From Octopus vulgaris (lineage: Eukaryota), in the NCBI GenBank assembly GCA_951406725.2, contig OX597816.1:162440001-162504000 (forward strand): 64,000 nucleotides of DNA. Direction: 5' to 3'. The notes beneath the pieces were generated by a model. That model was not told where the DNA came from and ran no database searches. It saw nothing but the letters and a program-made list of their open reading frames with translations. Both the position numbers and the translations under genes were made by a program. Shown in pieces: positions 12,710-48,850 of this stretch (position 1 is its first letter; each line of letters begins with the position of its first letter).

Positions 12710-12828
12710 ATTGATAGAAAAACAAAAGGCGAAGAAAAAGTGTTAGTTTGACGCTCGGGAAAAAATGAAAAAGTCATCTACGTTTCGAGCCTACGCCCTT
12801 CAACAGAAAGAATAAGAGGAAATATACA
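12710..12828 (-). mobile_element. Penelope-like short repeat with variant hammerhead (12775-12810)
   Basis: Minus strand CTTT-CTGTTGA-A-GGGC(GTAG)GCTC-GAAAC-GTA; flanks match 16745-16912 and 48660-48850. Confidence 0.6.
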
Positions 12829-13344
12829 GAGAGAGAGAGAGAGAGAGAGAGAGAGAGAGAGAGAGAGAGAGAGAGAGAGAATGAAAAATGAAAACTTGTA
12901 GAGTTCAATGACACATATGTATTTATATATATATATATATATATATATATATATATATAGCGAGAGAGAGAGAGAGAGAGAGAAAGAGAGAGAGAAAGAA
13001 AGAGTGAGTGAGGTAGAGAGAGAGAGAGAGTCAACAACAATTGAAAAGATTGCAAGACGCAATGAAAATTTTATAAAGATAAATAAATAAATGAGTGGCA
13101 ATATTACCGGTGAGTGTGTTAAATAAGAAGGCACTAAAAGACAATAACTATACCCAGGCATAACAGAATATGCTTCAACACACGAACTCACATGAGGAAT
13201 CTTGCAAACCAAATCCAAAAACGAAATATGTATACATATATATATATATATATATATATATATATGTATGTATGTATGTATGTATGTATGTATGTATGTA
13301 TGTATGTATGTATGTAAGTATGTATGTATGTATATATGTATGTA

Positions 13345-13560
13345 TAGTTAATCCAAGCATGAACAAGCAAGAAAAAACACGGAAAAACAACAACGCGAGG
13401 ACGTGGAGTAAGTACAGTGTTATTGAACGCTCAGGAAAGGAAAGGAAAGAAAGAGGATTTCATGTATCGAGCGGTTCTCTATGTCAGAAAGGTAGAAAAA
13501 AGTCCAAAGAAAGGAAGACAGAGTAACAAAATCGCCATCGACGCACACGCGATCACATGT
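13345..13560 (-). mobile_element. Penelope-like short repeat, degenerate hammerhead
   Basis: Homologous to 4950-5132; core decayed to CTGACAT...GCTCGATAC. Confidence 0.55.
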
Positions 13561-13859
13561 ATATATATATATATATATGTATATATATATTTGAGTGTGT
13601 GTGTGTGCTTATATTTATATACATATATATATGCATATATATATATATATATATATATATATATATATATATATATATAAATAGTGTTTACAGAATGCAT
13701 GCATATATGAATACATATACATACAATTAGATATCTGTGTCTAAAGCTATGCCTGCATTTTATATCAAACTCTAAAAGCAGTGCTCGAGAGCGACCTGAC
13801 TAGGTACAGTTGAGATGAAATATATGAAAACGTCAATGAGTACTACTCACCACTTCATT

Positions 13860-14230
13860 TTCAAGTTTTCGTTGACCTCACAAAGGCCTTTCATAATGTG
13901 AAATGGATGGCTTTGTGCATATTCTTAGAAATACTTTGACGTCCACCGGAGTTTGTCGTAATGATTCGTAAACTCCATCTCAATATGTGGTCACGTGTTA
14001 ATGGAATCCTATCAGACCTTATGTCAATTGACAACGGTATGAATCAAGGAGACATATTTACCCCTACACTTTTCTCCACCTATTTCTCTCTTGCTATTGC
14101 TTATGCTTTTCAAGAATGTACCATCGGTGTCTATCTAAGGCTCCGATCCTCCGCTAAAGTATTTAATCTGAGTCGGTTGAGATTCAAATTGTTTGTGAAT
14201 TGCTATATAATGACGATAAACGAAATATGC
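13860..14230 (+). mobile_element. RTE-clade (BovB-like) LINE reverse transcriptase fragment, pseudogenised
   Basis: Translation FVDLTKAFHNV...MIRKLH...NGMNQGDIFTPTLFSTYF...GVYLRLRSSAKVFNLSRLR matches RTE RT motifs; in-frame stop present. Confidence 0.85.
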
Positions 14231-14332
14231 AAAATTTGGTGGGAATTTTTTATCTTTTTTATAGAGCTTGCATCACTATTAGTTCATTTTAGTATATCTA
14301 ATTTGAATATCTTTTTCCTGTGTACTCGGAAG

Positions 14333-15380
14333 TAATAATAATAATAATAATGATAATAATAATAATAATAATAATAATAATAATAATAATAATAATAATA
14401 ATAATAATAATAATAATAATAATAATAATAATAATAATAATAATAATAATAATAATAATAATAATAATAATAATAATGATAATGATAATAATAATAATAA
14501 TAATAATAATAATAATAATAATAATAATAATAATAATAATAATAATAATAATAATAATAATAATAATAATAATAATAATAATAATAATAATAATAATAAT
14601 AATAATAATAATAATAATAATAATAATAATAATGATGATGATGATAATAATAATAATAATAATAATGATAATAATAATAATAATAATGATAATAATAATA
14701 ATAATAATAATAATGATAATAATAATAATAATAATGATAATAATAATAATAATAATAATAATGATAATAATAATAATAATAATAATAATAATAATAATAA
14801 TAATAATAATAATAATAATAATAATAATAATAATGATAATAATAATAATAATAATAATAATAATAATAATAATAATAATAATAATAATAATAATAATAAT
14901 GATGATGATGATAATAATAATAATAATAATAATAATAATAATAATAATAATAATAATAATAATAATAATAATAATAATAATAATAATAATAATAATAATA
15001 ATAATAATAAATGATAATAATAATAATAATAATAATAATAATAATAATAATAATAATAATAATAATAATAATAATAATGATGATGATGATGATAATAATA
15101 ATAATAATAATAATAATAATAATAATAATAATAATAATAATAATAATAATAATAATAATAATAATAATAATAATAATAATAATAATAATAATAATAATAA
15201 TAATAATAATAATAATAATAATAATAATAATAATAATAATAATAATAATAATAATAATAATAATAATAATAATAATAATAATAATAATAATAATAATAAT
15301 AATAATAATAATAATAATAATAATAATAATAATAATAATAATAATAATAATAATAATAATAATAATAATAATAATAATAA
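14333..15380 (+). repeat. Very long (TAA)n array (about 1.05 kb) with TGA variant units
   Basis: Direct reading. Confidence 0.97.
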
Positions 15381-15936
15381 ATGCCCTGATGCAGTACCAG
15401 GCAGTGGCTCTCATGGCTTCTGATCTTAACTGATTGGAAGTGTTATCATGTACATTGTTTTGTCTTGGTATAAAAGATGGGCTACAGCAAATATTCTGCT
15501 CAATACCACAGATTTGCTTGTCAGTTGTTTGACCTTAACCAGTTGAGCATGTCCCTTAGTGGCTGACGACAAGTGCATCTCTGATCACGAGCATAAGTAG
15601 TGGGGGAGCATCATAGCCATGTGTTGAGAGGGATTCTTTGGGGTTTGAATAATTCACCTCTGGAAACATGGGTGGTTTTTTCAACATCCTTAAACAACCC
15701 TTATTCAGGGACCGTTTGAGTGGGATGGGCTACTCAACCTGAAGAAAATTCTAACTGGGCCCCACCTGCAAGGTCATGTGCTGTTTATCTTGATATGAGA
15801 TCACCATGTCGCGCACATATGGTTGTGATGCATGTGCCTGGTGTACCTTTATCAGACGGGTAGTCATGATGGGTATATTGGGCTTCGTATATTTTACCCC
15901 AGTGTCACTTTGATGGCATGAACTGCTCTCTCACTC
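15380..15936 (+). mobile_element. TAA-associated retroposed element family E (probable Dong/R4 3' UTR or non-autonomous partner)
   Basis: Near-identical to 40216-40659 and 56880-57220. All three share the 3' end CTCTCTCACTC|AATAAT and have different 5' truncations. Confidence 0.85.
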
Positions 15937-47039: not shown

Positions 47040-47290
47040 ATTAAATAGTTTTGCTAGAAAACTTGAATCCGGTCTATTGATTACTTTTGACTTACCTCCC
47101 TCAAATGTATATCGTCTGCAATTGTCATGGTAGAGAAAATAGACGACGTGATGTGTGATGTTCATGCTTTCCCAAAGACTCACGTACATTGTGGTAAAGA
47201 ATGATTGAAGCTGATGGTTGAAACGGTTCGGCATATTCGATTCGTCACAGATCGATCGTTTAAATATTTTAAAGTTCACTTTAGCAGCAC
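47040..47290 (-). mobile_element. Possible decayed mariner fragment
   Basis: VYFLYHDNCRRYT resembles the mariner motif LHDNARPHT; little other support. Confidence 0.3.
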
Positions 47291-47494
47291 GGAGTATGTT
47301 AAGATATGTTTTCGAATATGATTATGTCACAGGAGAGAAATTACTGAGGATGTTGGCAAAGGCTTCCATTATTCCAGATGAATACAAGGCTGGTGATAAG
47401 GGGCATTGGTAAATATGGGATCTGCGGCTGGTTGTCGCTTACATTTCGCAGCATGAATGGACGGCTAAGCCTTAAGCCTATCAAAAGAATGAAG

Positions 47495-47705
47495 GCAGTA
47501 CTCTAAGAGAATCGTTAGCGCGTCAGACAAAATAATAAGAAATTCTACTTGATGTTTACGTTCCGAGTTCAAATCACGACAAAGTCACCTTTACCATCCA
47601 TTCTTTCTGAGAAGATAAAACAAGGCATCAACCAAGTACAGGAGTATATGCAATTGTCTAAGAATCCTACCTTCAAATTTACTGGCATTGTGTCAAAATT
47701 TGAAA
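47495..47705 (+). mobile_element. SINE family B, highly diverged
   Basis: AGAATCGTTAGCGCGTCAGAC...TTTACGTTCCGAGTTCAAATC. Confidence 0.55.
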
Positions 47706-48105
47706 GCCTTATTAAGCTTAAGACAGGAATTAAATGCATCAAGGAATGCAGTAAGTGCTTCTGTCACCATCTGCAAGACACATTACGATATTGATACCAT
47801 CCTTTGGTATGGATGGGAGGAAGAAATCTTTCTGAAACATTCTCGAATATTTAATATTCAATTATCTCTAGATCTAAGAAAAAATTTACAAAATATAAAG
47901 CGGAATTTAAAATTACAGTAAAGAAAGAAATACGCACACATATGTGTATGTATATATATATATATACATATATATATATAAATGGACGAGCAGAAATATA
48001 TATATGCATGTATGTATGTATGTATGTATATGTATATATATATATATGTGTATATATATGTATATATATATATATATATATATGTGTGTGTGTGTGTGTG
48101 TGTAT

Positions 48106-48482
48106 GTGGAGGCGCAGTGACCCAGGGGTTAGGGCAGCGGACTCGTGGTCGTGGAGTGGCGGTTTTTCGATTCTCAGATCGGGCGTTGTGAGTTTTTATT
48201 GAGCGAAAACACCTAAAGCTCTACGAGGCTCCGGCAGGGGGGGGGGGAAACCCTGCTGTACTCTTTCACCACAACTTTCTCTCACTCTTTCTTCCTGCCT
48301 CTGTTGTACCTGTATTTCGAAAGGTCATCCTTGATACACTCAGTGGCACGCTGAATATCCCCGAGAACTACGTTAAGGGTACACGTGTCTGGAGTACACT
48401 GCCACTGCCATGTTAATTTCACGAGCACGCCGTTCCGATCAGATCAACTCGAACTATCGTCGTCGTAACCGACGGAGTGCCA
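48106..48482 (+). mobile_element. SINE family C, full length
   Basis: Matches 28332-28712. Confidence 0.9.
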
Positions 48483-48659
48483 CCATATATATATATATAT
48501 ATATATATATATATATATATATATATATATATATATATACATATATATATATATATATATATATATATATATATATATATATATATATATATATATGGAT
48601 ACATACGCATATATACGGAGATATACGCAATTATATATATGTATATATGCATGCATATA

Positions 48660-48850
48660 GGGATAATTCACAATAAAACAAAAGACGAAGACAGGTGGTA
48701 TAGACAAGAAACAGATGTATTAGTTTAACGCTCGGGAAGTGAAAAAGTCTTTAAGGTTTCGAGCCCTACGCTCTTCCACAGAAAGGAACACAGAAAAAGA
48801 AACAAGGAGAGAAAATAATGTGTAGTGGCTAGCGATCTATCATGGCGAAT
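48660..48850 (-). mobile_element. Penelope-like short repeat with variant hammerhead (48749-48785)
   Basis: Minus strand CTTT-CTGTGGA-A-GAGC(GTAGG)GCTC-GAAAC-CTT-AAAG; reverse complement of 16745-16912. Confidence 0.6.

Follow-up and report, generated by a model that had tools for sequence, protein, structure and literature searches.

A dispersed hammerhead-type repeat family of Octopus vulgaris with uridine at core position 6

Introduction

Minimal hammerhead motifs have been described in metazoan Penelope-like retroelements, and the consensus architecture given for the Penelope type in the text and Fig. S3 of that work (PMC4209133) matches the short repeat that is the subject of this study. 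The repeat occurs three times in a 64,000-nucleotide (nt) stretch of Octopus vulgaris DNA (GenBank assembly GCA_951406725.2, contig OX597816.1, positions 162,440,001 to 162,504,000 of the forward strand), referred to here as the window, and all three copies have U in place of A at core position 6 (U6 in place of A6, a change written A6U). All 56 of the 56 representatives in Fig. S3 of the same paper have A6, though the search there demanded A6 for nearly all of them. The paper also describes a near-identical scaffold in a Neptune element of Acropora, and its passages on Penelope hammerheads leave open non-cleaving roles.

Other described systems provide points of comparison. A natural hammerhead with C at position 6 (A6C) is reported to be slow in Mg2+ and to cut well in Mn2+ (PMC3088659, PMC7151607), and the hammerhead of the Poseidon element of Anolis carolinensis is described as cutting in vitro only with the element's protein and as leaving no ends in RNA sequencing (RNA-seq) (PMC11167929). 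A bias towards insertion at microsatellites has been described for Neptune and Naiad elements (PMC8557442). The data presented in this study support well the existence of a family of minimal hammerheads of the Penelope type in which U6 is fixed, and are used to weigh whether that family may still cut.

Results

The initial annotation of this DNA placed three hammerhead-type motifs in the window, each with U6 and each with a different letter at position 7, and called them a dispersed family. All of this held up. The motifs are where they were said to be (Table 1), and the pattern TCTGTNGAAG-N8-14-CGAAAC matched three times in the window and not once in each of 100 dinucleotide shuffles. Homology reaches far outside the motif, with 73-86% pairwise identity over 119-158 aligned bases. 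The U6 repeat is a dispersed unit of 160-190 nt with (TA)n at its end; the end of copy 2 adjoins a (TA)n array at 16911-16936 and the start of copy 3 one at 48852-48881. The extents of copies 1 and 2 are those given by nhmmer. For copy 3 nhmmer gave 48661-48819, and the 5' part at 48820-48851 was counted in because read depth stays high there.

Each copy has the same order of parts: a U-rich flank, the 5' strand of stem I, CUGUNGA, an extra A, a 4-bp stem II and GAAA, followed by a palindrome of C and G without loop III, U16.1, H17 and the 3' strand of stem I. In the strand C3 U4 G5 A6 N7 G8 A9, U6 is the one misfit in all three copies and the six other positions fit. The U-turn favours a purine at position 6. 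The extra A between 9 and 10.1, the G10.1-C11.1 pair that opens stem II, G12 A13 A14, the A15.1-U16.1 pair and a non-G H17 (A, A and U) were likewise found in 3/3 copies. The palindrome at 15.2-16.2 is present in two of the three, and G16.2 makes up 85-90% of depth across the family. Each copy also carries its own irregularities. Stem I of copy 1 is damaged by a U·U mismatch and a U·G, and the 3' part of this copy has an internal deletion; stem I of copy 2 is just 3 bp; copy 3 has a 4-bp stem I, one extra G in loop II, and C in place of G16.2, which leaves C·C at 15.2-16.2.

Table 1. Positions of the hammerhead-type repeats and of the pairing predicted to mask stem II (window coordinates)
Feature	Position	Strand	Details
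Copy 1 of U6 repeat	12707..12844	-	CUGUUGA; C3 12806; stem II GGGC/GCUC; GUA triplet
Copy 2 of U6 repeat	16742..16909	+	CUGUAGA; C3 16788; stem II GAGU/GCUC; GUA triplet
Copy 3 of U6 repeat	48661..48851	-	CUGUGGA; C3 48781; U6 48778; N7 48777; H17 48753
Sister-family copy	4950..5125	-	canonical A6; CUGAAGA; C3 5080; stem II GAGC/GCUC; GUA
Second sister-family copy	13345..13535	-	A6; decayed core; 75% identical to the 5080 copy
Inverted repeat pair, different family	77-234; 487-644	-; +	89% identity over 158 nt; trinucleotide arrays between
Predicted masking pairing (folds)	48735-48785; 16785-16835; 5035-5085	-; +; -	

The state of position 6 across the family was assessed in public sequencing runs. 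The search listed 20 matching runs among 24, under six organism labels and with at most one third of the words present; no RNA run was among the matching runs listed, a result that carries no weight on expression. Four of the 24 runs were aligned to copy 3: three contig sets (X1, X8 and X11, from organisms A, B and E; their kind was unrecorded or guessed to be DNA) and one raw RNA run (X23, organism E, about 6% of reads covered). The alignments comprised 6643, 7258 and 5162 contigs and 2103 RNA reads, and depth on copy 3 is not to be read as copy number. Among the 40 of 112 variant rows listed there was none at position 6. The weakest listed row peaks at about 14%, which would put A6 below 14% if, as is assumed here, the rows are ranked by share. 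The three contig runs have 48682 as their sole A>C place, so that G6 is below 3% in them. The consensuses of loose ends, the parts of records not aligned to the reference, read U6 in 4/4 runs (79, 84, 63 and 127 records, with median lengths of 19, 12, 14 and 44; position 6 is the 12th letter). No position-6 row was listed and the loose ends read U6 in all four runs; therefore U6 is the majority state of the family across species. The earlier claim that U is fixed at this position is thus upheld for the family majority in three organisms, and the A6 consensus that the initial annotation named as its refutation was not found across thousands of contigs. Its reservation that shared ancestry alone could explain the U was also sound, in that shared ancestry does account for U in all copies.

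A sister family with A6 is present in the same window and had been overlooked in the initial annotation, as had a separate canonical pair with C3 at 181 (-) and 541 (+). The sister copy at 5080 is 57-62% identical to the U6 copies and was used as the outgroup; the sister family has stem II and downstream motifs in common with the U6 repeat. An alternative core register that would preserve A6 in the U6 copies was set aside, since no gap is needed to align the A6 sister. When metagenomes were scanned with any letter allowed at position 6, there were 109 matches at 108 loci, representing 95 distinct motifs on the same scaffold; the loci belong to other families, without similarity outside the motif. 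One of the 95 has C6 and one U6, and none (0/95) has G17. U6 most likely represents the derived state, in one octopod lineage, and A6 the ancestral one, because both sister copies, the other 93 of the 95 motifs from other animals and all the published representatives have A6. The single U6 motif (L067:2466-2495, -) and the single C6 motif (L011:1420-1449, +) sit in unrelated A6 scaffold families and are probably copy-level mutations. At L040:604-689, two A6 motifs of the same family lie in an overlapping inverted arrangement. Pattern scans gave 0 matches in viral contigs and 0 in prokaryote genomes.

Variation within the U6 family is concentrated where hammerheads are free to vary. Position 7 takes all four letters in the four runs: U7 accounts for 11% in X1, 22% in X8, 32% in X11 and 27% in X23, C7 for 11%, 23%, 12% and 31%, and A7 for 10%, 24%, 2% and 4%, the remainder being G7. 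H17 varies between U and A, with A in 5-26% and G17 below 3% in the three contig runs, and the first base of loop II is variable in 7-33%. When the private changes of copy 3 were set aside, G12 alone among 30 hammerhead-constrained positions had a variant in the rows listed. In the rows listed, variable sites made up 1/30 of the constrained positions versus 15/84 in the 3' flank (one-sided p 0.04), and five of the six common variant events in the motif hit positions that are free to vary, which number 6 of 36 (binomial p 7e-4); it should be noted that these p values count shared master lineages as independent and that the position classes were set after the table was viewed, which reduces their force as evidence for selection. 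Depth also drops about ten-fold near copy 3's private changes, possibly hiding variants, and this counts in the same direction. N7 shows three substitutions, whereas its six neighbours in the core have no common one (probability 0.003 if rates were equal). Since the common variants fall at hammerhead-free positions (N7, H17 and loop II), they are better evidence of constraint than stem II. From this pattern, the core has probably been under continued selection after A6U.

The initial annotation had cited the stem II differences as pairing-preserving changes, and this support proved weak: the differences in the window are one-sided changes to G·U, with no compensatory pair. The covariation score was reached by 313/500 shuffles (from only five sequences), and stem I showed one two-sided change. 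In a 46-nt context the probability of stem II ranged from 0.12 to 0.99. Self-dimers folded 3-8 kcal/mol below two monomers, and their best folds differ from the full active form. Folding predictions pair the purine-rich strand of the core with a U-rich tract downstream, which would mask stem II in both U6 and A6 copies. An alternative hairpin in which U6 and N7 covary with this tract was considered and not supported, with A7 commonest where the matching partner letters are rare: it stood at 24% in the run with those letters rare versus 4% and 8%, and was rare where they were common. Rfam returned no hammerhead at copy 2, nor at two canonical A6 controls; the result is uninformative because two canonical motifs were missed as well.

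The closest link to a known class of element comes from loci elsewhere. At L022, frames that show an RVT_1 match and an endonuclease-like end are followed after about 680 nt by an A6 scaffold, and at L060 such a scaffold comes about 100 nt after a frame that has a cysteine linker and matches GIY-YIG weakly (E 0.0018, which does not reach the curated cut-off); each scaffold is on the same strand as the frames. By tblastn, 14/108 loci (duplicates included) match the L022 or L060 frames. All three U6 copies and the two sister copies end at TA-rich repeats, in a window that is rich in microsatellites. By analogy with these systems, the U6 repeat likely represents the 3' end of a Neptune-type Penelope-like retroelement, in non-autonomous form. 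A protein search with the translation of copy 2 found nothing. The stretch at 5100-5372 was considered as a decayed Neptune endonuclease end and rejected: its score of 9.8 was reached by 86/150 random window pieces, and positive controls scored 16.8 and 30.3. By exact words, the U6 family did not match the published Octopus Naiad consensuses: in the supplement of PMC8557442 two of three family words gave 0 matches, and the third had two, one in a Chlamys entry and one in an unnamed entry directly before another Chlamys header. In the window the U6 repeat is present as single copies 4-36 kb apart and not as tandem units, and no head-to-tail joint was supported in the aligned runs.

Among the other features, each half of the inverted repeat pair near the start of the window holds a canonical A6 minimal hammerhead with a stem I of 4-5 bp, and the layout of the pair is reminiscent of inverted Penelope-like ends. 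Between the (TA)n array and copy 2, the segment 16590-16716 is U-rich on the minus strand and has no other match in the window; it is possibly the inverted tail of another element. An exon-like frame at 35124-35342 (+) has one database match, with 78% identity over 89% of the frame length, to a protein of Octopus bimaculoides (P0270) that carries a C2H2-type annotation, in keeping with an octopod source. Remnants of non-LTR (long terminal repeat) retrotransposon frames with zf-RVT matches lie at 41553-42128 (+) and 53822-54526 (+). The 150 of 656 Rfam matches listed for the whole window are microRNA models on microsatellites.

Discussion

The explanation favoured here, with slightly less than even confidence, is that this very abundant repeat is a non-autonomous element, likely of the Neptune type, and that a slow hammerhead with U6, assisted by a dimer partner or a protein, was kept in its source copies. 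Under this explanation A6 would be ancestral and one lineage would have switched to U6, after which the source copies would have kept the hammerhead core under selection. Residual slow cleavage after GUA or GUU would proceed through two RNAs pairing at the palindrome; a U6 hammerhead would depend on such a partner and perhaps also on the element's protein, and mobilisation would occur in trans by a Neptune-type reverse transcriptase (RT)/GIY-YIG protein. Residual cutting in itself may be real, though we would lean marginally towards its absence.

A number of results weigh against this explanation. None of the three copies of the U6 repeat in the window is intact (0/3), and they are probably inert. 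When these copies and the two sister copies are taken together, two of the four stem II pairs are invariant, two vary on one side and none on both, and in a 100-nt context stem II has a probability of at most 0.01 in all three U6 copies and in the A6 sister. Among the variant rows listed, A6 at 3-14% of the family is still compatible with the data. In the RNA run there was no pile-up of read ends at the cleavage site, which is a weak test in one standard RNA-seq run; both strands were covered equally and 84% of aligned reads continue into unlike sequence, which fits copies embedded in host transcripts. G12A is present at 4-6% in contigs, as CpG decay would give, and at 16% in RNA reads. A loose-end consensus of the RNA run X23 (164 reads, agreement 0.59, window position 48764) reads A at position 4 together with U6; it also reads U7, with a 5' flank like that of copy 1, and may represent one highly expressed locus or a decayed subfamily. 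No significant match to a Penelope-like protein (RT or GIY-YIG) was found within the window. From published work, hammerhead catalysis is described as unnecessary for insertion in vitro (PMC11167929), Naiads are described as spreading without canonical hammerheads (PMC8557442), and pairwise mutagenesis is reported to leave low activity in all mutants of the CUGA turn except a C3-G8 swap (PMC9901934).

Much of this would be expected if A6U inactivated the ribozyme in one source element that amplified anyway because cleavage was not needed, with U6 as a founder trait and the diversity at N7 as a mutation hot spot or chance. The lack of effect of catalytic mutants on insertion in vitro (PMC11167929), the low activity of CUGA mutants (PMC9901934), the damage in every window copy, the U4A consensus with 16% G12A in RNA reads, the lack of stem covariation and a site-level contrast that reaches only p 0.04 all fit such a history. 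However, it has to account for three substitutions at N7 against none common at six core neighbours, for an H17 that alternates between U and A with G below 3% in the contig runs, as in the A6 families with their 0/95 G, and for U7 at 11-32%, for which CpG decay of about 5% is too small. This history is therefore unlikely, though it deserves serious consideration. The same pattern of constraint is predicted both by the slow-cutter explanation and by a fold selected for binding or positioning a Penelope-like RT/endonuclease and not for cutting, in which U6 would be tolerated or even favoured as a limit on self-destruction of the template. The lack of common reversion of U6 to A6 in the rows listed would suit such a role, as would the reports that uncleaved RNA is the main insertion substrate of the Poseidon element and that its hammerhead responds to the element's protein (PMC11167929), and the non-cleaving roles left open in the 2014 paper (PMC4209133). 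From established hammerhead knowledge, however, the avoidance of G17 and the retention of G8 and G12 are most simply catalytic constraints, and a match to the cognate protein was not found in the window; a binding fold is accordingly rather improbable. Finally, the motif could resemble a hammerhead by chance within an ordinary repeat like a short interspersed element (SINE), a view in line with the Rfam result at copy 2 and with a parent element that was not found. This is very improbable, since Rfam misses the two canonical A6 controls too, the core of a homologous sister copy is fully canonical and in register with that of the U6 copies, and in other animals Penelope-like frames are followed by the same scaffold.

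No report of a natural A6U or U6 hammerhead family was found in the literature covered, outside which lies the 2017 paper by Luense, Weinberg and Breaker. That paper reportedly surveyed hammerhead core variants and could include U6 examples. In the main text of a 2026 repeat annotation of Octopus vulgaris the words ribozyme and hammerhead are absent (PMC13282606). It is doubtful, though it merits attention, that an octopod-wide and very high-copy hammerhead lineage cuts with an uncompensated U6 and has long diversified on that background. If true, the lineage would provide the first natural and abundant departure from the rule of a purine at the third position of the CUGA turn, assistance by a dimer, a protein or metal ions would be at work, and searches for the canonical core would have missed the lineage.

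Whether Penelope-type hammerheads must cut at all is an open question that bears on the U6 family. The window offers a natural experiment, in which U6 and A6 sister lineages that have the same stem II share one genome and the A6 sister can serve as a natural control for cleavage. Should U6 cut, there is an abundant natural exception to the accepted core rule, and searches restricted to CUGANGA miss whole families. If U6 is conserved without cutting, the fold has a non-catalytic job in retrotransposition, and if it neither cuts nor stays conserved, these elements amplify with a dead ribozyme.

Among known systems, the metazoan Penelope hammerheads described in PMC4209133 are the closest, especially that of the Acropora digitifera Neptune element, whose stem II scaffold is nearly identical. 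As described there, they share with the U6 family the U-rich flank, the short stem I, the extra base between 9 and 10.1, G10.1-C11.1, the palindrome without loop III, the NUH triplet and an occurrence mostly as single copies. The U6 family differs in having U6 for A6 and in that no linked RT/endonuclease frame was found in the window. The Schistosoma Cercyon motif with U3-A8, from the same source, likewise marks an entire abundant subfamily of the Penelope type in which a non-consensus core is fixed; however, U3-A8 is a compensatory pair swap, whereas the A6U of the octopus family has no visible compensation. The animal non-LTR retrozymes (bioRxiv 10.64898/2026.07.22.740005) are also described as short non-coding repeats that derive from Penelope elements and carry a type I hammerhead, but they are defined by tandem units and the octopus U6 copies are dispersed monomers. 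The Poseidon element (PMC11167929) is likewise of the Penelope type and reportedly without cleavage ends in RNA-seq, and provides a model for protein-assisted cutting, though it has a canonical core, is autonomous and was tested in vitro. The A6C hammerhead of phage Bcep176 resembles the octopus family in its natural pyrimidine at core position 6 and, as reported, has a low but real activity with a preference for Mn2+ (PMC3088659, PMC7151607); it has C and not U and is a single phage sequence with measured activity, whereas the octopus family is a high-copy animal repeat.

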